Source: Acidobacteriota bacterium (GTDB lineage Bacteria > Acidobacteriota > UBA6911 > RPQK01 > JAJDTT01). Taken from it: a stretch of 64,000 bases of DNA. The notes under the pieces were generated by a model, which saw nothing but the letters and a program-made list of their open reading frames with translations, did not search any database and had not been told where the DNA came from. Where the stretch lies: contig CBDCJH010000002.1 in the NCBI GenBank assembly GCA_965217775.1, positions 5,152,001-5,216,000 of the forward strand, read 5' to 3'. How positions within the stretch are numbered: the first letter of the stretch is position 1; each line of letters opens with the position of its first letter. Both the position numbers and the translations under genes were made by a program. This document shows positions 3,261-31,125 of the stretch, in pieces.

Positions 3261-3288
3261 TTTCCTATTTCCTCTTTCCTATTTCCTC
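3261..3288 (+). repeat. Heptamer tandem repeat (TTTCCTA/TTTCCTC) x4
   Basis: tttccta tttcctc tttccta tttcctc read directly, upstream of the amidohydrolase RBS. Confidence 0.8.
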
Positions 3289-3310
3289 TGTTTCTCAGAA
3301 GGGGAGTGCC

Positions 3311-4225: not shown

Positions 4226-4667
4226 GTAGAAACGCCCTGGCCCGGTCGTAGACGCGAGGACTGGAGCTCTCCCGGGGACCCGCCACGTTCAGAACCCGGA
4301 TCCGGTGACGCCGGATCCATTCCAGAACCGGTTCGGTTCCGGGGTCCAGGTCCAGGTCCACCCGCCGGCATGGCCGCCCTCGGCGCCGGGCTCGGACCCA
4401 GGTGAGCCGGGTGCCGCCGTCCACTCGGGTCCGGAACAGGATGAGGGTCCCGTTCGAATCTCGAACGTTCCAGTCGGTTCTCTGGTGGTACCGGCGGAGA
4501 GGCGTCTCCCGGAGCGGATAGCGGGGATCGAGAGGACCGTCCTCGGCGCGGCGGCCCCTCGGGCACCAGCCGCCGCAATCGAGCGATAGCTCCAGAGCCA
4601 CGTCCAGAGCCGCGCGGTCGACTCCCGTTTGTCCTCCCGAGACGATGCGATTCGGTCGGCCTTCCAC
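4203..4667 (-). CDS. Putative molybdenum carrier / SLOG-family protein
   Basis: IVSGGQTGVDRAALD, GGWCPRGRRAEDG, RTDWNVRDSNGTL and LNVAGPRES motifs. Confidence 0.85.
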   Translation of the reverse strand: MEGRPNRIVSGGQTGVDRAALDVALELSLDCGGWCPRGRRAEDGPLDPRYPLRETPLRRYHQRTDWNVRDSNGTLILFRTRVDGGTRLTWVRARRRGRPCRRVDLDLDPGTEPVLEWIRRHRIRVLNVAGPRESSSPRVYDRARAFLLRLLGNL

Positions 4668-5014
4668 GTTGCGCCTGCGCTCTCGTACAGCGGGTTACGC
4701 ACCGGTTCGAATGGATCGACGATACTATCCGCCACGCATCAACCCGCCATCCGCCCCGGGGTTCCCCGGATACCACCAGAAGATGTCGAGTATACTCACG
4801 AGCGTCCGCCAGCCCGCCGATATCGAATCCGCGATGTTTCCCGGACTCCATTTCGTACGTGAGGCGTGTCTGGAAATGGCATCGTCAATTTTTTGTCAGG
4901 GGTCCAGGAAGAAAAAGTCGGAATTTAAAACAACCATATCGGTATAATGTTGTCTTGAACAGATGTCCCTGGAAAAAACTGCGAGGATGGGTTTGGGGGG
5001 CGATTTCAAAGGCA

Positions 5015-5100
5015 TGTGGACAAGGTGTGGATAAATTGTGACTGTATGAACCATAAGTGAAGTTGCTATTGCGGATAGGGTCTTGCAGCCGAAATCCACA
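5015..5100. promoter_or_regulatory. DnaA-box cluster
   Basis: TGTGGATAA 5026-5034 (perfect reverse complement of TTATCCACA), TGTGGACAA 5015-5023 (1 mismatch), TGCGGATAG 5070-5078 and AAATCCACA 5092-5100 (2 mismatches each), in an AT-rich tract. Confidence 0.55.
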
Positions 5101-5134
5101 AGAAAAAGGCTCAATTTCTTGGTGAAATTTCTGG

Positions 5135-5162
5135 TTGCGCGGTTCGGAGAAAGGCATAGAAT
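5135..5162 (+). promoter_or_regulatory. Sigma70-type promoter for the structured RNA
   Basis: TTGCGC (5135-5140)-N16-TAGAAT (5157-5162); predicted start ~5169-5170 coincides with the base of the closing stem. Same architecture as the tRNA-Phe promoter in this window. Confidence 0.65.
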
Positions 5163-5168
5163 CTCCCT

Positions 5169-5645
5169 TGTCCCAAGGGGTAAACGCAAGTTGGCCCCGA
5201 GGCGGCGCCGGTCGCAAGCGGTCGATCCGGCTCCAGGGTTTCGGCCTTGAAGGTGGGGAGGCGGCCAGTGGCGGGCGGGCGAGTTCCTCAGCCGGTTTTG
5301 ATCGATTGAGGGGCAAGCGCCGAAGAGGCGCGCCGGATCTGCCGGAGCCTTCGGGCGAGGGTAGCGAAGGCGAGTGTTCAGAGGCTGCTTTCGGGGGTGC
5401 GGCTCCAGGGCGGCGGGTTGCTTCGGATTGGCGTGAACCGGTTGTTACCGGGGAACCTCAATGAAGGACGGCCCCCCTGGAGAGGAGCGGAAGTCGTCAG
5501 GGGCAAGGGCAGGTTCCTTCGGGACTTGGTCGAACACGGCGGCAGATGCTCCACTTGGGGGCACGGAAACTGGCCCCATTCGGGTCGGCAGAGAGTGCCT
5601 TTCGAGGCCGTGCAACTCGCGAATATCACTTGGGACACTTTTTTT
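5169..5645 (+). ncRNA. Large (~470 nt) highly structured non-coding RNA candidate, class not recognised
   Basis: Closing stem 5169-5193/5613-5637 (21 of 25 pairs); nested helices 5221-5230/5580-5589, 5251-5258/5549-5556, 5337-5344/5540-5547, 5374-5379/5532-5537; UUCG at 5240, 5350, 5390, 5422, 5518, 5601; T7 tract 5639-5645; no credible ORF. Confidence 0.75.
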
Positions 5646-5762
5646 CTTCCGGGCGCTCGTTCCCAGGCATCATCGGTTCCTTCCCGTGCAGTGAGTGTTG
5701 ACTTGCTGCGATCCATTTCGTTCTTTTTCCGTCGTCGCCGTTAGAGTAATCGTTGGATCTCC

Positions 5763-5790
5763 CGCGGGGTATATTACGCGGGGTATATTA
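5763..5790 (+). repeat. Perfect 14-bp tandem duplication CGCGGGGTATATTA x2 upstream of lysC
   Basis: Read directly; each unit contains a -10-like TATATT. Confidence 0.85.
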
Positions 5791-5820
5791 CGGTTTCTCG
5801 AAATCGCGTGAGATGAAGCT

Positions 5821-7203
5821 GTGATCGTTCTCAAATTCGGTGGGACGTCAGTTCAAGGCACGGACGCGGTGACGCGGGCCGTCCAGGTGATTCGGCGCCA
5901 ATTGTCCCGGGGCGAGGTCGTGGTCCTGTCCGCCATGGGCAAGACCACCAATGGACTGTTGGAGATGGCACGAACCGCCTCGTCCGGGGACATCGATTCC
6001 GCGTGGGCGATACGGGACGACCTGAGCGCGTTGCACGAGGCGGTGGCGCGTGAGCTCCTCTCGGGCCGCCGCTGGAAGAGTGTGGAAACGTCGCTGGCGG
6101 CCCTCTTCCGGGAGATGACCGATATCGTGCAGGGACTCTATCTGCTGGGTGAGACCAGTCCCCGGAGCATGGACCGTGTCGGGTCCTTCGGCGAACGCTT
6201 GAGCACGCTGATTTTCTCTGAAGTCCTCAGGGAAAACGGAATCCCTGCCGAGTTGGTGGACTCACGAGATCTGATCCGAACCGACGACCACTTCACCCAG
6301 GCTGCCGTCTTGCAGGAACTCACCCGGAACTGCGTCCGGGAACAGCTCCTGCCTCGGCTGCGCGCCGGAAAGGTGATCGTCGCGCCGGGCTTCATCGGCT
6401 CCACGGTAGACGGGGTCACGACCACCATCGGGCGCGGAGGGTCCGATTACACGGCCGCCCTGATCGGAGCCGCACTGGATGCCGAGGACATCCAGATCTG
6501 GACCGATGTTCCGGGCGTTCTCACCGCGGATCCCCGGATTGTTCCGGGCGTCTACAAGATTCACGCCATCTCCTTCGCCGAAGCAGCCGAGTTGGCCTAT
6601 TTCGGGGCCAAGGTGCTCCATCCCAGCACGCTGACACCGGCCATCGATCGGGACATCCCCGTGCATGTCTGCAACTCCAGGCAGATCGACGAGCGGGGAA
6701 CCTTCATTTCCGCGGCCCCCGTCTCCTCCTCCAGTCCCATCAAGTCCATTGCCTGCAAGCGGGGCATCACCATCGTCAACATTCTGTCCACCCAGATGCT
6801 GCTCTCTTACGGCTTCCTGCGCCGGATCTTCGAGGTGTTCGAGACTCACGAAACGGTGGTGGACGTGGTGGCCACTTCCGAGGTCAACGTCTCCCTGACC
6901 GTCGATTCCTCGCAGGAGCTGGAGGCGATCGGCAGCGATCTGGCGGAGTTCGGCGAGGTCCGGGTGGCCCCCGACATGGCCATCATCTGCACCGTGGGCG
7001 AGGACGTGAAGAAAACCCCCGGGATCGCGGCGCGGATCTTCGGGGCTCTGGAGGGGATCAACGTGCAAATGATCTCCCAGGGGGCGTCCCGTATCAACAT
7101 GACATTTCTGGTTGCGGAAGACACAATGGAGGAGGCCGTCCGGCTGCTCCACAACGAGTTCTTCCGGCAGCCGGACCCGGAGTTGTTCGAGCCCGTCGAG
7201 TAA
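5821..7203 (+). CDS. lysC: Aspartokinase (lysine-sensitive type)
   Basis: VLKFGGTSV, TTIGRGGSDYTA, WTDVPG, GAKVLHP and C-terminal ACT domains; first gene of the dap operon. Confidence 0.95.
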   Translation: MIVLKFGGTSVQGTDAVTRAVQVIRRQLSRGEVVVLSAMGKTTNGLLEMARTASSGDIDSAWAIRDDLSALHEAVARELLSGRRWKSVETSLAALFREMTDIVQGLYLLGETSPRSMDRVGSFGERLSTLIFSEVLRENGIPAELVDSRDLIRTDDHFTQAAVLQELTRNCVREQLLPRLRAGKVIVAPGFIGSTVDGVTTTIGRGGSDYTAALIGAALDAEDIQIWTDVPGVLTADPRIVPGVYKIHAISFAEAAELAYFGAKVLHPSTLTPAIDRDIPVHVCNSRQIDERGTFISAAPVSSSSPIKSIACKRGITIVNILSTQMLLSYGFLRRIFEVFETHETVVDVVATSEVNVSLTVDSSQELEAIGSDLAEFGEVRVAPDMAIICTVGEDVKKTPGIAARIFGALEGINVQMISQGASRINMTFLVAEDTMEEAVRLLHNEFFRQPDPELFEPVE

Positions 7204-9702: not shown

Positions 9703-10851
9703 ATGAGTCCCAGATTTGCCCGACGCCTGGACGGCATTGAGATCTCGATGATCCGCCAGATCATGTCCCGGGCCGCGGGTTGCGTGAACCTGGGACTGGG
9801 CGAGCCGGAGTTCGCGGATCCTCCGCGGGTCCGGGAACAGGCGCGCCGCGTGTTGGAGGGTGGGCGGATCGGCTACTCTCCCAACGCCGGGGTCCCCGAG
9901 CTTTGCCGCCGGATCCACGAGTACCACGGCGGCCGCGACGGTCATTCGGTCTGCGTGACCAACGGGAGCCAGGAGGCTCTGTTTGACGTGGTGTTCGCCC
10001 TGGCGGGGCCGGGAGACGAGGTGCTGGTTCCCAATCCGGGATACGTCACCTACCCGACGGCGGTCCGTTTGGCCGGGGCAACCCCGGTCTCGTACCCCTT
10101 GGGGGCCGGCGACGGATTCCAGTTGGATCTGGAGGAGCTCGAAGCCCTGGTCTCCTCTCGAACCCGGGCCTTGATTCTCAACACGCCTTCCAATCCGACG
10201 GGCCGAAGCCTCACATTGGAGCAACTCCAGGGTGCGGCGCGTCTGGCCGAAGAGAAGGATCTGGTGCTCGTCAGCGACGAGATCTACCGGGAGATCTACT
10301 ACGGTTCGCCGCCTGCGTCGGCACTGGACGCGACGGACGCCGCCGTCGTCATCTGCGGGTTCTCCAAGGCAGCCGCCATGACCGGATGGCGCCTGGGCTG
10401 GGCCTGCGGACCCCAAGCCATCATCGACAAGGTGACGGTGCTCCACCAGAACACCTCCATCTGTGCGTCCACGTTGACCCAGAGGGCGGCTCTGGCGTTG
10501 TTCACGCCGGAGGGTAGGGACGAAATCGAGCGTATGCGGCAGCGTATGGCACGGAATTGCCGATTCACCTGCCGGTGGCTCGGCCGGCGGATGGGACAGG
10601 CGTTCGTTCCGCCCGACGGGGCGTTCTACGTCATGGTCTCGGTTGAGGAAACGGGTCTCGACAGCCTCTCGGCGAGTCTGGAACTGCTCCAGGACAAGGT
10701 GGCCACCATTCCCGGCGCCGCCTTCGGGTCCGAGGGAGAAGGCTACCTGAGGCTTTCGTTTGCCTGCCTGCCTGAATCGCTTAAGAAAGGGCTCCGGCGG
10801 TTCGAGACGGGCATCAAGCGGCTCGCGCGGAACCGGAAACAGCGCAGGTGA
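9703..10851 (+). CDS. PLP-dependent aminotransferase class I/II (DapC candidate by context)
   Basis: NLGLGEP, NTPSNPTG, SDEIY, GFSKAAAMTGWRLG. Confidence 0.88.
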   Translation: MSPRFARRLDGIEISMIRQIMSRAAGCVNLGLGEPEFADPPRVREQARRVLEGGRIGYSPNAGVPELCRRIHEYHGGRDGHSVCVTNGSQEALFDVVFALAGPGDEVLVPNPGYVTYPTAVRLAGATPVSYPLGAGDGFQLDLEELEALVSSRTRALILNTPSNPTGRSLTLEQLQGAARLAEEKDLVLVSDEIYREIYYGSPPASALDATDAAVVICGFSKAAAMTGWRLGWACGPQAIIDKVTVLHQNTSICASTLTQRAALALFTPEGRDEIERMRQRMARNCRFTCRWLGRRMGQAFVPPDGAFYVMVSVEETGLDSLSASLELLQDKVATIPGAAFGSEGEGYLRLSFACLPESLKKGLRRFETGIKRLARNRKQRR

Positions 10852-10855
10852 TCTC

Positions 10856-13873: not shown

Positions 13874-15790
13874 GTGCGCCAGGCTAACTGGCACAAGATA
13901 GGCGGTGGAAGTCCGCCGAAACGAAGGACTAACCATCCACGTTTCTCCGCGAGCCGTGCGTGGGCACCCGTGAGGGTGTCGGCGAAGCGTCGGTAGCGGT
14001 GCGTATGGGCAGGCTATTGAGCATCGAAAGCTCCCTGATCGGAAGTGCCGAGGCTGTAGTCGCGGTCGAAGGCAACACCGGCTGGACCGCCCAGGTGAGG
14101 GACGGTCGGGCTCCGCGGTGTCAAAGAACCCAGGCACGTACGCAAATCTTGTTCCGGGACCTGGGAGGGCTTCATTTCACCCCGGGGGGTCGCCCCGGGG
14201 TCGCATGAGAAAGGAGTAACCCGAAACTCATGATGGACGGAACGAAGCAATCGGATTCATCCATAGTAGCGATGAAGCGGGCGAACAAAGAGGGGCGACC
14301 CTCGGCGGAGCCGGTGGAGCGAAGGGATGGAACCAAGGGGAATTCGGTGAGCCAAAGCACGCGCCGGACGCAGAGTCGGGGGAGCGTGTCCCAAGCGGTG
14401 GACCGGATACGGCGAGCGATCGCGAGAAACCCCAAGGAGCGACTGACCGCGCTGCTGCACCATATCACTGTGGAGGCCCTGCGCCGCGCCTACCTCGGAC
14501 TGAGGAAGGATGCTGCGCCGGGAATCGATGGGGTACGGTGGGAGGAGTACGGGGCGAAGCTGGAAGAGCGACTGCTGGACCTGCATCGCCGCGTGCACCG
14601 GGGCGCGTACCGAGCGCCTCCCGTCCGGCGGGTGAACATCCCCAAGCCGGATGGAAGGACACGACCGCTCGGCGTGGCCGCGCTGGAGGACAAGATCCTC
14701 CAGAAGGCAGTCGTGGACGAGCTCCTGACGCCGATTTACGAGGCGGAGTTTCTCGGGCTCAGCTACGGGTTCCGGCCCGGACGGAAGGCGCATGACGCGC
14801 TGGATGCACTGGCCTACGGGATCGAACGGCGGAAAGTCAACTGGATCGTGGACGCGGACATTCGGACGTTTTTCGATGCCATCGACCGGGACCGGCTGCT
14901 GCGGTTCGTGGAACGGCGGATCGGAGACCGGCGGGTGCTGCGGCTGCTGCGCAAGTGGCTGAACGCCGGCGTGATGGAAGAAGGGACCTGGTCGGACTCG
15001 GGGAGAGGGACGCCTCAGGGCGCCAACGTCTCGCCGGTCATGGCCAACGTGTACCTGCACTACGTGCTGGACCAATGGTTCCATCGGACGTGGCGTCCAC
15101 GAGTCCCCAATGGCGAAGCGATCCTGGTGCGATATGCGGACGACTTCGTGGCCGGATTCCAGAGACGGGCGGACGCGAAACGGTTTCTCCGAGACCTGGG
15201 GGAACGGTGCGCCGAGTTCGGGCTGGAACTGCACCCGGAAAAGACGCGACTGGTGGAGTTCGGACGATTTGCGGCAGCGGATCGGCGACGACGCGGGGAG
15301 CGGAAACCGGAGACGTTCGACTTTCTGGGGTTCACGCACTACTGTGCGAAGACCCGGAAGGGACGCTTCCGGCTGGGGCGGAAGCCAAGCGCGAAACGGA
15401 TGAACCGGACCCTGCAACGGTTGGGGGAGAGGCTGTGGAGACAACGGCACGCGGATCACTGGGAGGTCGGGAAATGGTTGAGCCGGGTCCTGAACGGCTG
15501 GCTGAACTATTTTGCGGTTCCGGGGAGTACGCGCTGGCTGCGAGGTTTCTGCTATCTGCTGCAACGGCGGTGGCTGCGAGCCTTGCGCCGCCGGTCTCAG
15601 CGCGACCGCTTCAGTTGGAGACGGTTGCGACGGATGACGGAATTGCTCTGGCCATCCGTGAAGATCCGTCACCCGTGGCCGGGGCAGCGGTTCCGCTGGC
15701 CGTCCACACCCAAGGTAGGAGCCGGATGCCTTAACGGGCACGTCCGGATCTGTGCGGGGGGCGGCAGGAAACTGCCGTTCCTACCGTGAC
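13874..15790 (+). mobile_element. Group II intron (full length, RT without endonuclease domain)
   Basis: 5' GTGCG at 13874; domain V GAGCCGGATGCC...GGCACGTCCGGATCTG and domain VI ending CCTACCGTGAC at 15790; EBS1 AGTCGC (14058-14063) is complementary to the 5' exon end GCGACT. Confidence 0.92.
14230..15789 (+). CDS. ltrA: Group II intron reverse transcriptase/maturase
   Basis: RT0 APGIDG, IPKPDGRTRPLG, SYGFRPGR, GTPQG, RYADDF, FDFLGF and domain X; no HNH domain. Confidence 0.95.
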   Translation: MMDGTKQSDSSIVAMKRANKEGRPSAEPVERRDGTKGNSVSQSTRRTQSRGSVSQAVDRIRRAIARNPKERLTALLHHITVEALRRAYLGLRKDAAPGIDGVRWEEYGAKLEERLLDLHRRVHRGAYRAPPVRRVNIPKPDGRTRPLGVAALEDKILQKAVVDELLTPIYEAEFLGLSYGFRPGRKAHDALDALAYGIERRKVNWIVDADIRTFFDAIDRDRLLRFVERRIGDRRVLRLLRKWLNAGVMEEGTWSDSGRGTPQGANVSPVMANVYLHYVLDQWFHRTWRPRVPNGEAILVRYADDFVAGFQRRADAKRFLRDLGERCAEFGLELHPEKTRLVEFGRFAAADRRRRGERKPETFDFLGFTHYCAKTRKGRFRLGRKPSAKRMNRTLQRLGERLWRQRHADHWEVGKWLSRVLNGWLNYFAVPGSTRWLRGFCYLLQRRWLRALRRRSQRDRFSWRRLRRMTELLWPSVKIRHPWPGQRFRWPSTPKVGAGCLNGHVRICAGGGRKLPFLP

Positions 15791-15945: not shown

Positions 15946-16018
15946 GCCGGGGTAGCTCAGTCGGTAGAGCAGGGGACTGAAAATCCCCGTGTCGGCGGTT
16001 CGATTCCGTCCCCCGGCA
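15946..16018 (+). tRNA. tRNA-Phe(GAA)
   Basis: Acceptor stem GCCGGGG/CCCCGGC, D arm AGCTCAGTCGGTAGAGC, anticodon arm GGGGA-CTGAAAA-TCCCC, T loop GGTTCGATTCC; followed by CCC rather than CCA. Confidence 0.97.
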
Positions 16019-16227
16019 CCCCTCTACGGAATCGCCTTCTTCCACTTCCTTCTACCGTCCGCAGACGGAGCATTCGGTCCCCTGCGCCCCCGTCAACCCG
16101 CAAAATCGCGAAGCGCATCTCGATGTGAAGGCGGCGCGCGCGCCTGCTGCTCGCGGAAGAGGCATCGAGCCGGCTCAGCAGAAAATAATCTCCATCCCGT
16201 CCAGTCGCCCCTTGCAGCATGATCTCG

Positions 16228-16267: not shown

Positions 16268-16507
16268 ATGCGGACCGTCAGTATGGACGAAGCCAAGACG
16301 CACCTTTCGCGTCTCGTACAGGCCGCCGCCAATGGCGAGCCGTTCATCATCGCCCGTGCCGGCAGGCCGATGGTCAAAGTCGTCGCGGTAGACGCGCCGG
16401 ATCCCGGAACAATGTGCCGAATCGGGTTTCTGGCCGGCAGAATCTCGGTGCCGCCCGACTTCGACCGCATGGGCGCTGACGAGATCGAGACATTGTTCGA
16501 AGGTTGA
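16268..16507 (+). CDS. Phd/YefM family antitoxin
   Basis: MRTVSMDEAKTHLSRLV...GEPFIIARAGRPMVK, upstream of a PIN toxin. Confidence 0.92.
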   Translation: MRTVSMDEAKTHLSRLVQAAANGEPFIIARAGRPMVKVVAVDAPDPGTMCRIGFLAGRISVPPDFDRMGADEIETLFEG

Positions 16508-16896
16508 GCGTGAGTTTCCTCCTCGACACTCATGTCCTGCTTTGGGCCGCGGGTGTGCCGGATCGGTTGCCGGCCGATGCGCGCACGCTGATCGAAAACC
16601 CTGCGACGGAGTTGATCTACAGTGCGGCATCGCTCTGGGAGGTGGCCATCAAGAACGGGTTGGGGCGCGCGGATTTCAGCGTCGATCCAAGCCTGCTGCG
16701 CCGGGGGTTGCTGGAGAATGGTTACACGGAATTGGCCGTGACCGGCGCCCATGCAGTGGTTGTGCATGGGCTGCCGCCGATCCACAAGGATCCATTCGAC
16801 CGCCTCCTGGTCGCACAGGCTCTGATTGAAGGGGTGACGCTGGTGACGGTGGATGAAGTCGTGGGGCGCTACTCGGGGCCGATCCGGGTACTTTGA
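16504..16896 (+). CDS. vapC: VapC PIN-domain toxin
   Basis: LLDTHVLLW, SAASLWEVAIK, HKDPFDRLLVAQA. Confidence 0.93.
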   Translation: MSVSFLLDTHVLLWAAGVPDRLPADARTLIENPATELIYSAASLWEVAIKNGLGRADFSVDPSLLRRGLLENGYTELAVTGAHAVVVHGLPPIHKDPFDRLLVAQALIEGVTLVTVDEVVGRYSGPIRVL

Positions 16897-16907
16897 TGGC
16901 CATCGTG

Positions 16908-16952
16908 AAAGAAAGTGACTGTCCCCTTCTCGTGACTGTCCCCTTCTCGCGG
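16908..16952 (+). repeat. AAAGAAAGTGACTGTCCCCTTCTC junction repeat, copy 1 (with tandem partial copy)
   Basis: Near-identical copies at 17743, 18490, 19260 and 23032, all in the same orientation. Confidence 0.85.
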
Positions 16953-17061
16953 GGCGAAGCGCGCGATAGCTTTAGCCGCGACGTGCTGGCGCACGGGTTG
17001 CGGTTGACGGCGGGTAAGGCGAGAGGGGAACATGAACCCGTGTCGCGGAGTTGAATCGACT

Positions 17062-17289
17062 ATGGACTGGCATGAGTACATATCCGTCGATCCGAATGTC
17101 TGTCACGGCCAAGCGTGCATTGCTGGCACTCGTGTGATGGTAACGGTCATCCTGGACAATTTCGCTGCCGGATTGACCGTCGAGGAGATTGCCGAGAGCT
17201 ATCCTTCCGTTTCCACCGATGCGGTCAGGGCCACTCTGCACTACGCCGCCGAATTGGCCAAGGAACGAGTAGTGCCCCTGGGAGCATAG
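17062..17289 (+). CDS. DUF433 family antitoxin
   Basis: ISVDPNVCHGQACIAGTRVMV...EIAESYP...LHYAAELA. Confidence 0.9.
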   Translation: MDWHEYISVDPNVCHGQACIAGTRVMVTVILDNFAAGLTVEEIAESYPSVSTDAVRATLHYAAELAKERVVPLGA

Positions 17290-17298
17290 AGACTCCCC

Positions 17299-17513
17299 AT
17301 GCGACTAAAACTCGATGAGAACCTGCCCGGCGAGTTGGCGAGGCTTTTCATCGAGGCGGGGCATGATGCAGTGACGATCCTCGACCAGGAAATCGGCGGT
17401 GCGACGGATGCAATCGTCGCATCCGCTTGTCTTAGTGAGGGTCGTGCCATTGTGACGATGGATACGCATTTTGCTGATATCCGAGGGTATCCCCCACATC
17501 TCTACCCCGGAAT
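17299..17513 (+). pseudogene. DUF5615 PIN-like toxin, 3'-truncated
   Basis: MRLKLDENLP...GHDA...TMDTHFAD; after YPGI the frame runs into an antisense mazF fragment. Confidence 0.8.
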
Positions 17514-17735
17514 AACGGTCCCGTCTGGCCTGCCGATCCAGGCTCTTGATCTGGTCGGCCAGAACGACGCCGGTGAAGGTTCCGGCGGCAGGAAGGGCGA
17601 CCTCGAAGGGATAGCCCTTGGCTCGGGAGGTGATGGGGCAGAACAGGGCGAGGCCGGTTTTCCGATTGTAGTTTCTCGGGCTCAGCGCCAGGGTCGGGAA
17701 GCGTCCCGCTTGTTCATGGCCGGCTTTAAGATTGA
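17514..17735 (-). pseudogene. mazF: Internal mazF/PemK fragment (paralog of 19308..19655)
   Basis: NLKAGHEQAGRFP...FCPITSRAKGYPFEV...DQIKSLD; lacks both termini; 5' break abuts the junction repeat. Confidence 0.85.
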
Positions 17736-17742
17736 GAAGCGG

Positions 17743-17771
17743 AAAGAAAGTGACTGTCAACCTTCTCGCGG
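17743..17771 (+). repeat. Junction repeat, copy 2
   Basis: AAAGAAAGTGACTGTCAACCTTCTCGCGG. Confidence 0.8.
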
Positions 17772-17904
17772 ATGGGTCTGGCGGGGGCGAAGCTGGCGCG
17801 GGCGCAGAACTGTACCCTGCTCGGGACATTGTTGAAGGTCGGAACTCAGGGCCGGGCCACCACGCGCGAGGTCTGGCTGTCGTTTTCCGAGAGCTACCCG
17901 TTGA

Positions 17905-18408
17905 CTAGATTACCCGGTTTCCCCAGGCAGAAATTACGTTCTCGCTTTCGTTTTGGAGCCGTCTGATTCCTGGCACGCTGAGCTTCGGAGTAGCTGGCAC
18001 AAAATCAAACTCCCAATCAACCCACTGGACCGGAAAGCCGACAGTCTGGGCATATTCGTATGCGGCCGTACAGTGATGCTGGTAGCTTTCCCATCCGTTT
18101 TGCATCAACTGGCAAATGCCTTTTACAGCGACTCCTTCAATACCTACGACTAGAGCACCGGATCTCAAGCTCAACAAGTCCCACATGATACGAGATGCTT
18201 GACTACTATACTCTTCACCGTACGCAATCAAATGTAGGTCCTTGACCGTGCGAATGAACGTGTCTTTATACCCCTTTTCAACCAAAGTGCAGAGTGTTCT
18301 CAGGTCTCCCAGTTTCGGCCATCCCTGGGCTACCACTTTTCGATGTTTCAACTCTTCGTAAGAAGCATTTCTCTGATTCCGATCAATGGCAAGCCACCAT
18401 GTATTCAC
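17905..18408 (-). CDS. Hypothetical protein, lower GC (possibly defence-associated)
   Basis: GGAGGAG RBS before GTG 18408; VAQGWPKLGDL resembles the N-terminal region of some restriction-system accessory proteins (weak). Confidence 0.6.
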   Translation of the reverse strand: MNTWWLAIDRNQRNASYEELKHRKVVAQGWPKLGDLRTLCTLVEKGYKDTFIRTVKDLHLIAYGEEYSSQASRIMWDLLSLRSGALVVGIEGVAVKGICQLMQNGWESYQHHCTAAYEYAQTVGFPVQWVDWEFDFVPATPKLSVPGIRRLQNESENVISAWGNRVI

Positions 18409-18489
18409 GGCTCCTCCCCCCTTTTCTTGAGTGACGTCCATTCTGAAGGTTTCGCCATATTGTACCCCTTGTTCGGATCAAGGCGGGAG

Positions 18490-18513
18490 AAAGAAAGTGA
18501 CTGTCCCCTTCTT
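18490..18513 (+). repeat. Junction repeat, copy 3
   Basis: AAAGAAAGTGACTGTCCCCTTCTT. Confidence 0.85.
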
Positions 18514-19250
18514 CCTGGTCCGCGACCCGTTGACTTCGCCAAACCGCGATCACGCAACCCCGCCAAGGCTCGCTTGATCTGCCGCTCGCTGGCATCAGCT
18601 ACCAAACCAGCAACAATCTCGCGCAAGGCCAAGCCATCCTCCGCGTCATCAAGCAGCGCCAAAATTGCATCTTACCGCTTGATCACGTCATCCCCGCTGC
18701 CTCTGGGCGGAACGTAGTCGGCGCGTCGAAAGCGCAACGTCACGCAATCGCCGCGTTCCTCGATCTCGGGCCGGGGCAGTCCGGCGGAGGTCGCCAGTTC
18801 CGCCATCCTGAGCGTACCGCGGCCCCACTCCTCGATAATGCCGCGCCGGTAGAAGGTGCGAGCGATCAGCGGATTCCAGGGCCGCGACTCGTGCGGCCCG
18901 AACAAATCATCCGGAGTCAGCCCGAAGTGCAGCGGGCCGGTCGAAGTCACCTCCAGGCGATCGTCGTACACCGCGAGCCCGATGGAGCCGCCGCCCATCG
19001 CGTAATCGCCGTGGCACAGAGCGTTCGCCAGCGCCTCGGGAGTGGCCAAGGGCGGGTAGAGCGGTTCGTCGATGCGCGCCATGCGTCCCGATTCGAACCG
19101 GCTGGCGATGGGCAGCGTTTCACGCAGGAAACGTTCCGCGTTCGCAAGGACCACGAAGGCGTTGCCGTTGAATTGCCGGTTGTCCAGGAAGTCGGAGCGG
19201 TTGGTGCCCCGAAAACGGGCCACGCGCAGCAGGCACTGCGGCATTTCGCG
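18514..19250 (-). pseudogene. HATPase_c_4 (RecG C-terminal-like) plus HTH regulator fragment
   Basis: EALANALCHGDY, AVYDDRLEVTSTG, SRPWNPLIA, IEEWGRG; internal TAA at 18672-18674; both ends cut at junction repeats. Confidence 0.8.
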
Positions 19251-19259
19251 TGACTCGTG

Positions 19260-19285
19260 AAAGTAGGTGACTGTCCCCTTTTCGG
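19260..19285 (+). repeat. Junction repeat, copy 4
   Basis: AAAGTAGGTGACTGTCCCCTTTTCGG. Confidence 0.8.
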
Positions 19286-19307
19286 TTCAACCCGTTTACG
19301 GCGCGGG

Positions 19308-19655
19308 TCAGGATTCGTTTTGATTCACGAGAACAGCCAGCTTCTCAAAAACTTCGCTCACTACCCGGGGCGGCGCCTTCGATTCGAAACGGACCCGTTT
19401 GGCCAGGCAATCCAGGCTCTTGATCTGGTCGGGCAAAATGACCCCGGCGCCGGCAGCAGGAAGGGCGACCTCGAAGGGATAGCCTTTGGCTCGGGAGGTG
19501 ATGGGGCAGAACAGGGCGAGGCCGGGTTTCTGATTGTAGCTTCTCGGGCACAGCGCCAGGGCCGGGAAGCGTCCGGCTTGTTCATGGCCGGCTTTAAGAT
19601 TGAAGGTCAGCCACACGATTTCCCCGTCTCCGGGGACGTAGGACCTCTTTACCAT
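19308..19655 (-). CDS. mazF: MazF/PemK endoribonuclease toxin (possibly inactive)
   Basis: YVPGDGEIVWLTF, GHEQAG, CPITS, DQIKSLD; the conserved Arg of the GxRP motif is Phe. Confidence 0.85.
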   Translation of the reverse strand: MVKRSYVPGDGEIVWLTFNLKAGHEQAGRFPALALCPRSYNQKPGLALFCPITSRAKGYPFEVALPAAGAGVILPDQIKSLDCLAKRVRFESKAPPRVVSEVFEKLAVLVNQNES

Positions 19656-19888
19656 GCCTCATTGCCTTGGGCGGGCCCGGTGTCCACCTCGGGATGCAGA
19701 TTCTCGTCCGTCACGGACGCCAGCATATCGGCCAAGCTGTAGGTCATCTTGCACAGTACGACTTGGTTGCCGCGCGAGACCATCTCGACGGTGGAGCCCT
19801 CATGCACCCCCCACTGCTCGGCGATGGGCTCGGGGATACGCACGGCCAAGCCGGACCCTCATTTGCAGATCTTTGATTTCGTACCCAA
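19649..19888 (-). pseudogene. mazE: MazE/AbrB antitoxin with a nonsense mutation
   Basis: AAGGAG RBS, TTG 19888, reads MGTKSKICK*GSGLAVRIP...ENLHPEVDTGPAQGNEAW; TGA at 19859-19861 replaces the Trp of KWG. Confidence 0.8.
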
Positions 19889-19899
19889 GGATAGTCTCC

Positions 19900-19915
19900 T
19901 TTTGTATCTACAAAA
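19900..19915. promoter_or_regulatory. mazEF operator palindrome
   Basis: TTTTGTA-TC-TACAAAA directly upstream of the mazE RBS. Confidence 0.6.
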
Positions 19916-19979
19916 AATATCTTTTCCCGTGGTGTGATCAAGGCTCATCCGTGGAACGTTGAAGGGCCGGATCGCCCCC

Positions 19980-21494
19980 TCACTTGAACCGGAAGGAATA
20001 GATATCCGCATCCTTCATGACGAAGCGGAGCCGGATCGGCCTTTCCGCCAGACGGTCGAATCTCATGGGGTCGGTGGGGAGAAAACCCGGGCGGCTCCAC
20101 CGGATCCTTCTCTGAATGTGATCGCCGAAGATGACCGGCGATTCCTCCAGCGTGAAACCCGGAATGGGCTGCCCGTCCGCGTCCTGGACCTCGATTCGGA
20201 TGCTGCCCACGGCCGACGTCGAGAAGTTGAGGACCAGATCCCGGCCCTCGAATCGGAATGGCTTGGTGACGAATTCACCCCCGGAGTAGGGCGCTTTGAT
20301 GGAAGTAAAGCCGTCGGTGCGCAAGACGAAACGTTCCAGGTATGTGGACGGATAGGTGTAGTTGCGGGACGTGTAGATCGAAATCTCATCCGGGGCGGTG
20401 GGAACCACGCCCACGGCCGTGCTGTTGGTTCGGTGGATCCAGTTTCGTTCCTGCCGTCCCGGCCGGATGAAGGCCTCCGGAAAGGGGTTCCAGTCGATCC
20501 CGTCACGGCTGATCATGAAAACGGTCTCCGAAATGCCGGGCCGGGGAGCATCGTCGTGGATCTGCCGCAAGGGCTGGAAGCGCTTGGGAAAACCCAAGTA
20601 GATGTGAGGGGCCCGAAAATAGGGCGTGGCCGCGTTGGTGTAGAGGTGGTCCACGGGCCGGGCCTTGCCGTTGAAGGTGCAGGGGACCGGCTCGGTCCAG
20701 TTGAGAAGGTCCTTGGATGTGGTCCGGGCGAAGGTGCGCACGTCCTGGAGCATGTACCGGAAGTAGAAGACGTACTGTTGCTCCCACTCGGACCAGAAGA
20801 GGACGTTGACGGAGTCGAAGGCGTTGGGCAACGAGGTGACGAAGAGGGGGTCCTCCCGCCACTTCTTCCAGTGGAGCCCGTCGGGCGAGACCCAGAGCAC
20901 CAGGCCGATGGAGCGTTCGTTGGCCTGACCGAATCGGGGATTGATGCCCACTCCGCCCGGTGACTTGAAGCGGATCGCCGGGTCGACTCCCGGCCGGGTA
21001 TCCAGCAGGGGCGCTCCCCCAGCGTGGTCGGTGACGATGTTGTTTTCGGTGGATCCGTTGAACTCGTAGAGGCCCAGATTGGGCCGCGTCCACTGGATTC
21101 CGTCCCGGCTCTCGGCATAGCAGAGGAAGTTGGGATGCGGAGGCGTGAGTTTCTCGTCCGGTCTCAGTCCGGCCTTCCTGGCGTAGGTCGGATCGGTGCG
21201 ACCCATGTAGTACATCCGGAAGAGGTCGCCGTCCTTGAAGACGCTCAATTGCCAACTGGTGTTCCCCTCCCAGGGACGATCGAATTCCATGACTGTGCCG
21301 CCGGACCAGGGTGAGTGAGGGCGGATCTCCACACCCTTCATCTCGGCGATCAGATAGTCGTCCGCGAACAGCTCCAGTCGGGAACCGATGTCAACGGCTT
21401 CCATGGAAGTGGCCTCCGCCCCCGAAAGCAGGTGACCGGTCCAGGCCGTGGAACCGGCCAGCAGCATCAAGACTCGAAACCAGGATACGCGCAT
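19980..21494 (-). CDS. Secreted glycoside hydrolase-like beta-propeller protein
   Basis: Signal peptide; repeated Asp-box-like S-x-DG-x-x-W motifs (SRDGIQW, SPDGLHW, SKDLLNW, SRDGIDW); LRTDGF. Confidence 0.7.
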   Translation of the reverse strand: MRVSWFRVLMLLAGSTAWTGHLLSGAEATSMEAVDIGSRLELFADDYLIAEMKGVEIRPHSPWSGGTVMEFDRPWEGNTSWQLSVFKDGDLFRMYYMGRTDPTYARKAGLRPDEKLTPPHPNFLCYAESRDGIQWTRPNLGLYEFNGSTENNIVTDHAGGAPLLDTRPGVDPAIRFKSPGGVGINPRFGQANERSIGLVLWVSPDGLHWKKWREDPLFVTSLPNAFDSVNVLFWSEWEQQYVFYFRYMLQDVRTFARTTSKDLLNWTEPVPCTFNGKARPVDHLYTNAATPYFRAPHIYLGFPKRFQPLRQIHDDAPRPGISETVFMISRDGIDWNPFPEAFIRPGRQERNWIHRTNSTAVGVVPTAPDEISIYTSRNYTYPSTYLERFVLRTDGFTSIKAPYSGGEFVTKPFRFEGRDLVLNFSTSAVGSIRIEVQDADGQPIPGFTLEESPVIFGDHIQRRIRWSRPGFLPTDPMRFDRLAERPIRLRFVMKDADIYSFRFK

Positions 21495-21646
21495 GATTCA
21501 CTCCTCGGTCGCAATTAGAACCGGTGTCTCGCAGGTTGTCACGTGGATGCGAAGAAATCCGATCGTGTTCGTATTGAAAACTCAATCGAGTGAGGATACG
21601 TTTCCTAACGATTCTCGCCAAGGGCTGCCAATAGGAGGGGTCGTGA

Positions 21647-22711
21647 ATGAGTCGGCATAAGGAATTCGATTTCGACAGCTTGCCCGAGGGCAGCAAGGAC
21701 TTCTACGAGCTGCGGTTGAAGGCACCGGATCTGACCCGTCTGACCGACGTCGTTCGGATGACCTGCGGCGACACGATTTCCCCGAACGCGATTTCTGACG
21801 CCATTGCGGCGCGGTTGGATGCCGGTTCGCTGTTGATCCCAGTCCTGGCGGTGAAAGGCGCCGGCCAGGGAAAGACTCTGGTGGCGACGGCCGGAGTTCA
21901 TGGGGACGAATACGAGGGCATGGAAGCCATCTTTCGCATCTTCGAAGCCCTCGACCCTTCCAACCTGTCCGGGACCTTCGTCGCGGTGCCGGTAGTGACG
22001 CTTCCGGCGTTCTGGCAGGCGACGCGGGCGAATCCTGTAGACGGCCTCAACATGGCCCGTATCTTTCCCGGGTCCCCTTCGGGGAGCATGAGCGAGCGGC
22101 TGGCCGCTCTGATGCTGGAGAAGGTCTTCCGGCATGCCGACCTCTACATCGACCTGCACAGCGCGGGCCGGAACAACGCCATGATGACTCTGGTCGGCTA
22201 CGCGGCCCTGGGCCGGCAGGCCGAGACGGCCCGGGCGGCGGCGGAGTGCTTCGGAGCCCCCATGATCTGGGAGCATCCCAAGGTCTCTCCCGGCCGCACG
22301 TTGACGGAGACCCTGAAATTGGAGATTCCGTCCCTCTACACCGAGGCGCGGGGAGGGGGCCGTGCCCATCCCGACGACGTGGATTGCTACACTCGGGGGC
22401 TTGCCAATCTGCTGGCGTTTCTCGATATGGCGCAACTCCCCGCTGCCGGCCTGGAAGCGGACTACGAGCCGCTGCGGCTCTGCGGCGACGGCGACGTGGA
22501 CGTCTCCATGAAGTCTCAGAGCAGCGGGCTCTTCTTCTCAGGCGCCCGTGTGGGGATGCGGGTTCGCGAAGGGGATCTGCTGGGAATGATCCGGGACCTG
22601 GACGGAACGCCGTTGGAGGAAGTCCGGAGTCCTCAGGACGGGGTCCTGGTGATGATCCGGACCAATCCCCGCATCTTCGCCGGTGAGGTCCTCCTGGTCA
22701 TCAACGCCTGA
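21647..22711 (+). CDS. Succinylglutamate desuccinylase/aspartoacylase (M14) family protein
   Basis: AGVHGDEYEG, NMARIFPG, IDLHS and C-terminal hybrid-motif domain. Confidence 0.88.
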   Translation: MSRHKEFDFDSLPEGSKDFYELRLKAPDLTRLTDVVRMTCGDTISPNAISDAIAARLDAGSLLIPVLAVKGAGQGKTLVATAGVHGDEYEGMEAIFRIFEALDPSNLSGTFVAVPVVTLPAFWQATRANPVDGLNMARIFPGSPSGSMSERLAALMLEKVFRHADLYIDLHSAGRNNAMMTLVGYAALGRQAETARAAAECFGAPMIWEHPKVSPGRTLTETLKLEIPSLYTEARGGGRAHPDDVDCYTRGLANLLAFLDMAQLPAAGLEADYEPLRLCGDGDVDVSMKSQSSGLFFSGARVGMRVREGDLLGMIRDLDGTPLEEVRSPQDGVLVMIRTNPRIFAGEVLLVINA

Positions 22712-23029
22712 GCCGGCTCCATCACCGCATCCGTTCCTCTTAATGTCCGGTGGGACGGTTCAGTCCAGCCTCTTGATCTTGAGATTCCGGAACCAGACCG
22801 GATCGCTGTGGTCCTGAAGGACGATGTGGCCCACGTCGGCGAGCCCATAGTGGGGGAAATCCTTGAACTTGCTGGCGGCCACCCTCTGTTTCCAGTCCTC
22901 GCTGCGCAGTTCGTACTCCACGATCTTCTCGCCGTTCATCCAGTGCTCCACGTGGTTGCCGTGGGCGACGATTCCCACCTGGTTCCACTCGCCGGCCTTT
23001 CGAGCCACGTCCTTCGAGGGAGGATGAAG
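22481..23029 (+). repeat. ~550-bp diverged direct repeat, copy 1 (3' ends of M14 and DUF1080 genes)
   Basis: Aligns by eye with 24136-24686, with scattered substitutions. Confidence 0.9.
22760..23029 (-). pseudogene. 3' fragment of a DUF1080 gene
   Basis: LHPPSKDV...LQDHSDPVWFRNLKIKRLD, nearly identical to the C-terminus of 24416..25150; cut at junction repeat 5. Confidence 0.88.
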
Positions 23030-23031
23030 CA

Positions 23032-23056
23032 GAAAAAAGTGACTGCCCCCTTCTCG
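23032..23056 (+). repeat. Junction repeat, copy 5
   Basis: GAAAAAAGTGACTGCCCCCTTCTCG. Confidence 0.8.
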
Positions 23057-23140
23057 AAGCCAGAGCGCCACCAAACATATGACTTGGGGATAGATCCTTG
23101 TAGGATGGGCGCCGATTTTCCGTTAATCTGATAAAGGTCA

Positions 23141-23550
23141 ATGTCGCTAGGCGTGGTCGTCAAGGGCCCCGAGGCGTTAGTACTGGCAGCGGATACTCGA
23201 GTGACTGTTACTGGTCGACATCGTAATGGTCCTGAGATACCTGTCAACTTCGACGATTTGACCCTAACCTGCTTGAATTGCTGCGTCAGCGATTCAATCT
23301 GTCAGATTCTCAGACTCGGGAGTTTGCGAACGCTCTCAGACTAAATCTGGAGTACGCGATACCCTATAGCGTACTTCCGCTTCAGGCCTGCGTCGATCTC
23401 GCGACCTTCCTGATCAGAACCACGATGACTGCCCAAAGTCTTGCCGTTGGATTACGAGGTGTCGGTGGTGCCATCAACGTAGCGACGATAACCTGAAGAG
23501 ACGGCCTGAAGTGGGTCCAGAAAAAAAGAATACGCGGAGAGAATCGCCAT
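23141..23550 (+). pseudogene. Degraded Ntn-hydrolase/proteasome-beta-like gene
   Basis: N-terminus MSLGVVVKGPEALVLAADTRVT and C-terminus LPLQACVDLATFLIRTT...GVGGAINVATIT lie in different frames with the middle apparently missing; TGA at 23494. Confidence 0.55.
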
Positions 23551-23866
23551 GTCAGACCAAACTTCGACCACTAGCATGAAAAGCTGGATGCGTTCTGGGT
23601 GGAGGATTCTTCCTGGTAACGTCCTCGCAGAAAGTGAAGCGTTGATACCCCCTGCGCCTGCGGCGACCATGGACATATTCGATGAACGAGATAAATCGGA
23701 AAATCCGCTGCAAGAGAAACACGACTCCAATTGCGATTGGGAACTCTTGGAAGATCTGGCCGATGCACAAAAAGCGTTGGAAGAGTACGAAGCTGTAGGT
23801 ATAGAGGGCACTATCCCTTACAGCGAGTACCGAGCAAAGCGACTTGGTTCGAAATACCGAGTATGA
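23549..23866 (+). CDS. Putative antitoxin of the RelE/ParE pair
   Basis: Acidic C-terminus ELLEDLADAQKALEEY...TIPYSEY, overlapping the toxin start; start codon uncertain. Confidence 0.6.
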   Translation: MSDQTSTTSMKSWMRSGWRILPGNVLAESEALIPPAPAATMDIFDERDKSENPLQEKHDSNCDWELLEDLADAQKALEEYEAVGIEGTIPYSEYRAKRLGSKYRV

Positions 23867-24111
23867 CGTTCGCCTAACCCCTCATGCCGAGCGCGATCTT
23901 CAGCGCCTGTCCGCTACGGACTTTCGTCGAGTCGATGAGCGCATCGTATCCTTGGCGCAAGACCCGCGTCCCCACGGTGTTCGAAAACTTTGGAAAAAGG
24001 CCCATCGGTTACGCGTCGGTCCGTGGAGAATCATCTGCATCATCGATGACTCCAATGGGGATCGTTCTGGTAAACAAGGTCGTCCGCCGAGAGAAAAATA
24101 CCTACCGCTGA
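23844..24111 (+). pseudogene. RelE/ParE toxin, frameshifted
   Basis: YDVRLTPHAERDLQRL...DPRPHGVRKL...RLRVGPWRII; the C-terminus IVLVNKVVRREKNTYR is in another frame after GGGG at 24057-24060. Confidence 0.78.
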
Positions 24112-24135
24112 ATTGACCACGTAAAGGCGGGGCTT

Positions 24136-24686
24136 TGCGGCGACGGCGACGTGGATGTCTCCATGCGGTCCGGATGCAGCGGACTTTTCTTCTCGGCCGC
24201 CCGCCTGGGCATGCGGGTCCGGCGCGGGCAGGTGCTGGGAATGATTCGGGATCTGGACGGTACGCCCTTGCAGGAAGTCCGGAGTTCTCAGGATGGGGTG
24301 CTGGTGATGTTCCGAACCAATCCCCGCATCTTCGCCGGCGAGGTTCTGCTGGTCGTCAACGCCTGATCCGGCGCCTCGACCGCGGCCGTTCCTCTTTTGT
24401 GTTCGAAGGGACGGTTCAGTCCAACTTTCTGATCTTGATGTTCCGGAACCAGACCGGATCGCTGTGGTCCTGCAGGACGATGTGACCCACGTCGGCGAGC
24501 CCGTAGTGGGGGAGATCCTTGAACTTGCTGGCGGCCACCTTCTGTTTCCAGTCCTCGCTGCGCAGTTCGTACTCAACGATCTTCTCGCCGTTCATCCAGT
24601 GCTCCACGTGGTTGCCGTTGGCGACGATTCCCACCTGGTTCCACTCGCCGGCCTTTCGAACCACATCCTTCGAGGGGGGATGAAGA
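24136..24686 (+). repeat. ~550-bp diverged direct repeat, copy 2 (includes orphan M14 3' fragment 24136-24366)
   Basis: CGDGDVDVSM...RTNPRIFAGEVLLVVNA duplicates the C-terminus of 21647..22711. Confidence 0.9.
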
Positions 24687-30108: not shown

Positions 30109-31125
30109 ATGGCTGCTCGTCCCCTGAATCTGCGTCCTCAGGAATTGGGAACGGGTGCCGGTTCCTCCCGGCCCGTCTCCCGCTGTCTCATGCTCCGGAC
30201 GGAACATCCGCAGCTTGTGCGCGCCGCTGTGGAAAAGCTGAGGAAATCGAACCTGGTTCCCGGCCGCCGCCGGCTGATCTTCGATGCGCGGGCTCAGCCC
30301 TACCCGTTGCGACTCGGGAATATCGCCGCGATCCGCCGCAGGAGCCGTTACGAGGAAGAAACCCCCGCCACGGAGGCGACGATTCTGTATCTGCCCACCG
30401 AAGAGGATTCGATTGCTCTGGAGGTCCTGAGGAGGCTGCAAGACCGGAAGATCGTGGGTCCCGGCCGGATTCTGGTGTTCTGCTCAGACGTGAAGAAAAC
30501 TCTCTACGAGTCGCGACCGGAAGTGAGCGAAGTGGTCGCCTATGGACTCAGGCAGAGCCTGAGAAACCTGCGAACCGTCCTGAGACTGGCCAGGATGAAG
30601 GTCGACGTCGTCGTGGCCATCCTATCGGGACGGCCCATATTCCGGGCCCACAAACGGCTGTTTTTTCTGCTCCCGGCTCGATCCCGACTCGTGTTCAACG
30701 AACACGGGGACTGCCATTATGTCAAGCGGAGCCTGGGCGACCTGCTCGGTCTCTGGCGCACCCCGTCCCTTCCCAAGATCGAACCCTATCGGCGCCTTTC
30801 GGGAAGAGAGTTCCGTTTCAGCGCTTTGATCCTGATCAAGGCAGTCCTGTTTCTTCCCCGTTATCTGTTCTTGATCCTGTGGCTGCGCCTGGGCAGCTTG
30901 ACAGTCCGTGGTGAAAGTCCCGCGAGCACCGAGACCGTTCCTGCGCCCGCCGGACAAGGCGCGATTCGGGTGCATACCGGGAGTATGTGCCCGAATCGCA
31001 ACGCCGTCCGCCGGGATGCAGGGACGGTCGAATGCCGTGATGACTTTTGCCACGGGCTGTTGAGGAAGGGCGGGTCGAAGCGTCTCACCGTTTTCAGAAA
31101 GGGGAGCTTCGGAGCGCGCGACTAG
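30109..31125 (+). CDS. Hypothetical protein with C-terminal TM segment and in-frame MITE insertion
   Basis: Operon-coupled ORF of 338 aa; 54 codons derive from the MITE plus its TSD. Confidence 0.65.
   Translation: MAARPLNLRPQELGTGAGSSRPVSRCLMLRTEHPQLVRAAVEKLRKSNLVPGRRRLIFDARAQPYPLRLGNIAAIRRRSRYEEETPATEATILYLPTEEDSIALEVLRRLQDRKIVGPGRILVFCSDVKKTLYESRPEVSEVVAYGLRQSLRNLRTVLRLARMKVDVVVAILSGRPIFRAHKRLFFLLPARSRLVFNEHGDCHYVKRSLGDLLGLWRTPSLPKIEPYRRLSGREFRFSALILIKAVLFLPRYLFLILWLRLGSLTVRGESPASTETVPAPAGQGAIRVHTGSMCPNRNAVRRDAGTVECRDDFCHGLLRKGGSKRLTVFRKGSFGARD
30902..31059. mobile_element. 158-bp MITE, copy 1
   Basis: Imperfect 18-bp TIRs CAGTCCGTGGTGAAAGTC/GACTTTTGCCACGGGCTG; TSD TTGA (30898-30901, 31060-31063); 1 mismatch to copy 2. 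Confidence 0.92.

Follow-up and report, generated by a model that had tools for sequence, protein, structure and literature searches.

A short oriented repeat marks gene truncations and rearrangement joints in Acidobacteriota and resembles the ends of TIRYT transposases

Introduction

Terminal inverted repeats (TIRs) with the consensus GGGGWSAS are found around genes for TIRYT transposases, which form subclass 2.1 of the TnpA-REP group of Y1/HUH enzymes, and dispersed solo TIRs belong to their published description (PMC3733652; PMC6006769). Where these two papers treat the repeats, they describe them as families and connect them neither with cargo capture nor with rearrangement joints. Here, we describe a 24-bp motif of this kind that lies at truncated genes in a 64,000-nucleotide stretch of an Acidobacteriota genome (assembly GCA_965217775.1, contig CBDCJH010000002.1, positions 5,152,001 to 5,216,000; hereafter the window). 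In the literature searched (subscription papers, figures and bioRxiv supplements lay outside the search), TIR repeats were nowhere tied to gene truncation, cargo capture or arrays. The repeat class is known but functionally uncharacterised; what is new is its variant form and its role at rearrangement joints.

Elements of the ISCR/IS91 type capture DNA by HUH-catalysed, one-ended rolling-circle transposition with one fixed and one arbitrary end, and occur in complex class 1 integrons. The relevant sections of PMC9727169 mention one-ended transposition for ISEcp1 only. Circles formed by the insertion sequence (IS) IS26 consist of one element and adjacent DNA, arise by intramolecular attack, and re-enter by homologous recombination or beside another copy (PMC7986276). 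Escherichia coli TnpA-REP cleaves single-stranded DNA (ssDNA) 5' or 3' of its repeat, a repetitive extragenic palindrome (REP), and recombines it (PMC8266576). The in vivo role of domesticated REP-associated tyrosine transposases (RAYTs) and TIRYT transposases is stated as unresolved (PMC8266576; PMC6006769), and PMC5581495, in the sections concerned, treats RAYTs as domesticated, without a role in cargo capture.

The motif is most similar to the TIRs of TIRYT genes and TIRtrons (PMC3733652; PMC6006769), with which it shares the GGGGWSAS core, a near-identical CTGTCCCCTT end, dispersed solo and tandem copies, and the same partial duplications as are found beside plasmid Y1 genes. It differs in that its copies are solo, quasi-palindromic and co-oriented, with no inverted motif pair in the window or in nine Acidobacteriota loci and no transposase in cis; since it has no Y1 match and no inverted pair, the window locus is not a TIRtron. 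Like the translocatable units of IS26/IS6 (PMC7986276), the motif forms directly oriented arrays at truncated genes with one copy per unit, and by analogy the motif units can be said to work as IS26 units do, but they fall outside the IS6 family. The motif is 24 bp long and non-coding, its enzyme is likely of the HUH rather than the DDE type, neither an 8-bp target duplication nor a 14-bp inverted-repeat pair accompanies it, and entry of its units seems to use captured chromosomal homology.

The likeness to ISCR/IS91 is looser, consisting of a presumed HUH chemistry, a fixed and an arbitrary end, and resident segments duplicated around inserts, whereas the motif loci have no ISCR transposase or ori/ter ends and their joints lie on both sides of the motif. 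Integrons and clusters of attC sites lacking an integrase (CALINs) also have oriented repeats between toxin-antitoxin (TA)-rich cargo with no integrase nearby, but here there is no fixed crossover and the cargo is often fragmentary and in both orientations; in comparison with attC sites, the motif is too short and too weakly folded. REP sequences and bacterial interspersed mosaic elements served by RAYTs of groups 2 and 3 (PMC8266576; PMC5581495) resemble the motif in having a trans-acting domesticated Y1 enzyme (presumed here), a strand-asymmetric imperfect palindrome and cuts outside the repeat; unlike these, the motif has no GTAG tag or alternating REP/iREP pairs, is low in copy number, and lies at rearrangement joints. 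The likeness to NTS/Ssn repeats (PMC11893778) is loose, and CRISPR arrays differ in that the motif copies are spaced 0.7–3.8 kb apart, with no Cas family among the 111 window open reading frames (ORFs) selected for annotation.

Motif copies lie at homology breaks

The motif consensus is an imperfect dyad, GAGAAAGTGAC-T-GTCCCCTTCTC. A search of the window with the 24-nt pattern (≤ 3 mismatches) found copies 1, 3, 4 and 5, with 0, 1, 3 and 3 mismatches, respectively (Table 1), compared to 0 in 100 shuffled sequences. Copy 2 was missed in this ungapped search because it carries one substitution and a 1-nt insertion, and was recovered by both a regular expression and a weight matrix. A partial tandem copy starting at 16932 adjoins copy 1. 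No sixth site reached a score ≥ 13 when the whole 64 kb was scanned with the weight matrix (top score in 5 shuffles, 8.4). All five copies lie on the plus strand, and an earlier sequence-only reading of this DNA was thus correct that five oriented copies occur and that none lies elsewhere in the window. The bare motif folded on the minus strand only, and weakly (-2.2 kcal/mol, z -1.6).

Related loci (L001 to L011) were gathered by a genome scan with an exact 20-mer of the motif, and the 11 loci returned are a small sample of the repeat family because the scan pattern was exact. By their titles, seven are Acidobacteriota, one is Aminicenantes, one is a record 97% identical to one of these, and the others are Bacteroidota (L002) and Allosphingosinicella (L003). 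L005 and L007, from related Acidobacteriota metagenome-assembled genomes (MAGs), are orthologous to the window at 88–93% identity; L004/L009, L006/L008 and L010/L011 were further pairs by alignment. Orientation was uniform within each locus for all 49 copies in ten loci. GC skew, which bears on whether orientation follows replication direction as in the lagging-strand activity of the IS200/IS605 type, was clear in only 4 of 10 loci (z 4.0–6.1; 3 independent sites), where GTGACTGTCCCC was always on the G-rich strand, and uninformative in 6. A right-half partial duplication followed the motif at 6 of the 49 Acidobacteriota copies (8 pattern matches, 2 of them full tandem copies; background 2.7%). 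Cargo between copies varied by genome and included Fic, AlbA-HATPase, Phd-PIN, PrlF, PemK, CopG, RES and DUF4177 genes, with PADLOC matches to SoFic and PDC-M50A.

Compared to L005, L007 and the window's own duplicates, every window copy lay ≤ 11 bp from a homology break. Breaks relative to intact homologues stood 7, 0, 11 and 1 nt from copies 2 to 5, as had been claimed from the letters alone for the truncations of mazF, both ends of the HATPase-HTH gene and DUF1080. Copy 1 is a break too, with the left flank and motif common to the window, L005 and L007 and divergence beyond. Only 2 of 200,000 random placements put a break ≤ 11 bp from all five sites. Across ten loci, 24 of 49 block ends lay ≤ 15 bp from a copy (null 4.8 ± 2.1, maximum 16 in 20,000 draws), and in the window alone 5 of 20 did so (p 6e-4); the other 15 window-coordinate block ends were > 15 bp from a window copy, some of them corresponding to motif joints of the partner genome. 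The block ends counted exclude those at locus edges, at intron ends and outside arrays, as well as weak paralogue matches, REP-like repeats and 4 of 6 redundant L005–L007 blocks; the set of copies includes a degenerate L007 copy entered by hand and omits an L001 copy (score 13.2). The motif is linked to breakpoints.

It is very improbable that this pattern reflects faulty assembly, or the chance position of an operator or terminator close to TA genes. Such an origin would suit records that come from MAGs, as the related ones do, and a motif that is a short dyad by TA operons; however, the architecture recurs in independent assemblies, chromosome-scale records included, duplicates are 75–93% identical and so are not collapsed repeats, core genes have no frameshifts compared to L007, and copies lie within broken genes rather than at promoters.

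In the 19 junctions displayed, joints lay on either side of the motif, 0 to ~20 nt outside it and occasionally more, often with 0–10 nt of microhomology or a short filler similar to sequence nearby. On inspection by eye, no site was visible at the break in the partner DNA, and in none of the 19 did an intact gene run directly across both sides of a copy. Units were often gene fragments, in both orientations. The motif itself survives at the joints. Uniform orientation, dyad symmetry and some whole units with copies at both ends (DUF4177 units in L006/L008 and a Phd-PIN unit that is extra in L004 compared to L009) are what would be expected if the motif were the crossover site of a tyrosine or serine recombinase building integron-like cassette arrays. 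We consider this improbable, because the joints stand outside the motif, at no fixed distance from it, the partner genes lack a site, the cargo is often fragmentary and in both orientations, and no integron integrase or tyrosine recombinase was found among the 111 window ORFs. On the same evidence the suggestions of a site-specific recombinase and of integron-like arrays, both part of the sequence-only reading, are disfavoured; entry appears instead to be homology-based.

The microhomology and filler could also indicate that the motif is the target of another site-specific nuclease, Ssn/GIY-YIG-like or of another kind. Incoming DNA would then mend the breaks, using homology at one end and end-joining or template switching at the other. 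As far as PMC11893778 describes Ssn nucleases, they cleave ssDNA close to oriented hairpin repeats, which cluster by variable genes. Such a nuclease is nevertheless an unlikely cause, since the motif is intact at the joints, matches TIRYT TIRs and not the NTS/SRM motif, and has the same partial duplications as TIRs adjoining Y1 genes.

Other short repeats were seen at these loci. A different short palindromic repeat with a GGGGACAG core lies between astE and DUF1080 in L007 (~15000–15035), a position specific to that locus, and a similar repeat occurs at 63397–63420 of the window. In L008, motif copies at 2200–2441 and 3715–3790 lie inside 40-bp tandem repeats, mixed with GTAG-type REP hairpins, and these clusters flank a gene for a 291-aa membrane-protein-like product. 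The region 2200–3740 was considered as a REPtron and rejected, as it contains this ORF and no transposase. An inverted cluster of very similar repeats was seen in L003, an Alphaproteobacterium (9883–10022), just beyond a DNA ligase gene and with no Y1 match nearby.

Diverged duplicates lie beside many copies

Beside many copies was a diverged piece (75–93% identical) of a gene resident 0.8–2 kb away. The order of homologue, then motif, cargo and homologue was observed at window copy 5 (DUF1080/astE, 1655 bp), at window copy 2 (mazF, 1868 bp) and, for pieces of ldh, at both L009 (810 bp) and L004 (1946 bp); L001 showed the mirrored geometry with four pieces of one hydrolase region. This geometry is in keeping with circular intermediates and suggestive of them.

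Polarised by L007 as outgroup, the differences between the two copies of the 554-bp astE/DUF1080 duplicate form a reciprocal mosaic, with a switch at 22639–22712. Left of ~22640 the right copy (B) was the odd one at 26 of 28 informative sites, and right of it the left copy (A) was odd at 29 of 33, the change point having been picked post hoc. Such a mosaic fits the trace that a single crossover with a foreign circle would be expected to leave. Copy-B-specific changes in astE fell at codon positions one to three as 10/3/16, and the ratio of third- to second-position changes exceeded the local-decay limit for the astE fragment (p 0.03), the L004 ldh fragment (p 0.04) and the first L001 fragment, f1 (p 0.02). 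These excess third-position changes show that 3 of 7 fragments evolved as working genes elsewhere, under purifying selection. The L004 ldh fragment was 88.0% identical to its own resident gene, which itself was 92.8% identical to the L009 gene.

A simpler process would be a tiny non-autonomous element that inserts at random and truncates genes, with arrays arising through host recombination between copies and through local tandem duplication and decay, without capture or foreign circles. Truncations on both sides of the motif, the neutral-like divergence of the mazF and DUF1080 fragments and of L001 f2 and f3, the mosaic switch at a gene boundary, and copies in REP-like clusters where no break was demonstrated (L008 2200–2441) are all compatible with such insertion. 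It would not explain why an intact gene continues directly across the copy at 0 of the 19 junctions, why purifying selection acted while the astE, ldh and L001 f1 fragments were diverging, or why the ldh gene resident in L004 is closer to its L009 counterpart than to the fragment in its own locus. We therefore regard random insertion as unlikely, if somewhat less so than the nuclease discussed above.

One L001 copy (10696–10855) is flanked by a 68-bp duplicate of 85% identity and could be a ~90-bp mini-circle insertion.

The motif resembles the ends of TIRYT transposases

The minus strand of the motif contains GGGGACAG, which fits GGGGWSAS, in copies 1 (and its partial copy), 3 and 4; the GGGG[AT][CG]A[CG] core is degenerate in copies 2 and 5. 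The comparison was made with the published consensus and with TIRs on plasmids rather than with individual published TIR sequences. The plasmid sample comprised 15 loci fetched from 35 and 20 partly overlapping tblastn matches. A CTG(T/A)CCCCTT end was common to the motif and to the TIRs of L014, L015 and L021, while their inner halves differed. The Y1 gene was flanked by inverted TIRs of this type at 3 of the 9 plasmid loci with a 230–290-aa Y1 gene, and these three had further TIR copies among toxin, immunity or TA cargo; the six plasmid loci whose Y1 genes were shorter or of another type (L012, L013 and L016–L019) had no convincing TIR. Right-half partial duplications like those of the motif also followed the TIRs of L014 and L021.

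In L021 (Pseudoalteromonas, NZ_CP045419.1), solo TIRs in one orientation bracket a fragment with RHS repeats and end an HTH_38 fragment, 3–4 kb from the Y1 gene, which has an internal stop. The stretch as a whole (1970–6850) has same-orientation solo TIRs between RHS, transposase-HTH and immunity pieces beside the TIR-flanked Y1 gene, and is a possible in-cis example of the process at the motif joints. In L014 (NZ_CP116719.1, 1100–7900), TIR-flanked Y1 genes and ~170-bp derivatives resembling miniature inverted-repeat transposable elements (MITEs) lie among small toxin- and immunity-type genes.

The proposal of a trans-acting, RAYT-like HUH enzyme is thus partly supported, by the fit to the TIRYT consensus and the likeness to the TIRs of plasmid Y1 genes, and such an enzyme is on sequence grounds the best candidate catalyst. 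The enzyme we infer, since neither the window nor the ten loci yielded a Y1 gene. A Y1 gene 2.5 kb from the motif match in Bacteroidota L002 was taken as chance, as the match lies within a coding gene.

Proposed mechanism

Overall, we think it probable that motif-ended capture by a TIRYT-class enzyme acting in trans, followed by homologous re-entry, is the best explanation of these loci. The motif would belong to the TIR-class ends that TIRYT transposases recognise, in a solo and quasi-palindromic form. An enzyme encoded elsewhere would cut ssDNA just outside either edge of the motif and join it to arbitrary nearby DNA, thereby truncating genes at the motif. Circles of ~0.1–2 kb, each with one motif, cargo and a piece of flanking chromosome, would be released and would presumably pass between related species. 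There, a single homologous crossover in the flanking piece, presumably dependent on RecA, would bring a circle into the matching locus, as would recombination with a resident motif, and the outcome would be an array of motifs in one orientation, gene fragments and diverged duplicates of local genes.

Several results weigh against this explanation. The 49 block ends were hand-listed from alignments, in or at variable arrays, and are not fully independent; 25 of them had no motif nearby, and breaks in the window such as those at 17514 and 24131 are motif-free. The loci were chosen by presence of the motif. By eye, the 19 junctions had no dinucleotide consensus or common target, and the hairpin was no more stable than shuffles (best z -1.6). 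The mosaic switch falls at the astE stop, a gene boundary, and because of this coincidence local duplication with faster decay of each dead half could mimic the mosaic. The DUF1080 and mazF fragments and L001 f2 and f3 were compatible with local duplication (p 0.63–0.97). A locally built Y1 profile had no match in six frames of the window and 10 loci. Among the nine plasmid loci with long Y1 genes, four were without a convincing TIR and two had copies but no inverted pair; the exact motif was seen beside a Y1 gene at no plasmid locus, and blastn of copy 1 against plasmids gave no match.

More tentatively, a minimal two-ended element (two fused TIR halves, ~23 bp), together with a domesticated HUH transposase in trans and RecA, may constitute an undescribed gene-acquisition system in which excised circles of cargo and flank home to the orthologous locus of related species and renew TA and defence arrays; if so, TIRYT/RAYT-like enzymes would have a concrete in vivo function. 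A repeat class that marks real rearrangement joints in several genomes offers specific junctions, substrates and testable predictions. If capture operates as proposed, a 24-bp site and an enzyme in trans would reproduce IS26-style array building without any IS, providing a hidden turnover route for TA, defence and polymorphic-toxin cassettes that integron and IS finders overlook, and possibly a compact ssDNA-joining tool. Motif-based capture may explain the exchange of toxin-antitoxin and defence genes among these bacteria.

Anatomy of the window and other observations

The coordinates of the array are given in Table 1. The sequence-only reading had treated 16900..23060 as one cassette mosaic without an integrase or transposase. 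The motif-marked breaks remain, but some breaks are motif-free, and ~3 kb within the region is core DNA rather than cargo by its synteny with L007; this conserved core divides the region into two hot spots, so that it is not a single string of cassettes. Pfam gave no transposase, recombinase, integrase or Cas family among the 111 selected window ORFs (43 + 68), which, together with the Y1 result, agrees with the second part of that description.

Table 1. Features of the variable array, with positions in the window.
Feature	Position	Strand	Evidence or remark
tRNA-Phe	15946..16020	+	Left anchor of variable array; common to L005 and L007
Phd/YefM antitoxin and PIN toxin	16268..16896	+	Pfam, alignments; common to L005/L007 as far as copy 1
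Motif copy 1 (16908-16931) and right-half partial tandem copy	16908..16948	+	L005/L007 homology stops at right edge
DUF433 antitoxin-like gene and DUF5615 (PIN-like) gene, 3'-truncated	17062..17513	+	Pfam; DUF5615 profile 1-77 of 110
mazF fragment	17514..17735	-	89-92% identity to 19388-19603; 5' break beside copy 2
Motif copy 2, degenerate	17743..17767	+	Regular expression, weight matrix
178-aa ORF, apparently intact	17905..18441	-	Between copies 2 and 3
Motif copy 3	18490..18513	+	At 3' break of HATPase-HTH fragment
AlbA-HATPase_c_4-HTH gene, internal fragment	18514..19248	-	92.5% identity to L005 3661-4395
Motif copy 4	19260..19283	+	Near 5' break of HATPase fragment
mazF (intact, 19308-19655) and mazE	19308..19882	-	mazE in-frame stop 19859-19861, 5' end approximate
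Conserved core genes: 504-aa ORF (-), AstE/AspA-family gene (+)	19980..22711		Pfam; syntenic in L007
Left copy (A) of 554-bp astE-3'/DUF1080-3' duplicate	22476..23030		DUF1080 part broken beside copy 5
Motif copy 5	23032..23055	+
Cargo not in L007	23056..24130	+	Short ORF from 23141, putative antitoxin 23549-23866, ParE-like toxin 23844-24116
Right copy (B) of duplicate	24131..24685		Foreign-looking astE 3' fragment, then intact resident DUF1080 gene

The variable array begins directly after the tRNA-Phe gene. This gene and a group II intron (~13874–15790, reverse transcriptase ORF 14230–15789), which lies between hsp20 and tRNA-Phe and has an empty site in L007, had been overlooked to the left of the array. 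Rfam matches in the window were limited to these two features, with none within the array. The intron was rejected as the cause of the arrays, as L007 and L005 both have motif arrays although L007 lacks the intron and L005 lacks it at the matching position.

The 178-aa ORF had 56 homologues, mostly of 164–181 aa, and no match in Pfam, PADLOC or NCBIfam; a DUF8426/EVE-like lead makes a defence gene possible. The L005 counterpart of the HATPase-HTH fragment lies inside an intact 474-codon AlbA-HATPase-HTH reading frame, and the short ORF from 23141 is possibly a gene fragment. A further array in L008 (13587–15773) ends at a tmRNA gene, and at the matching position in L006 (4893) a motif and a DDE transposase were found. 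A 158-bp MITE-like repeat with an internal palindrome occurs twice in the window (30902–31059 and 63421–63578, 99% identity), and a related insert is present in L004 (5390–5566) but not in L009.

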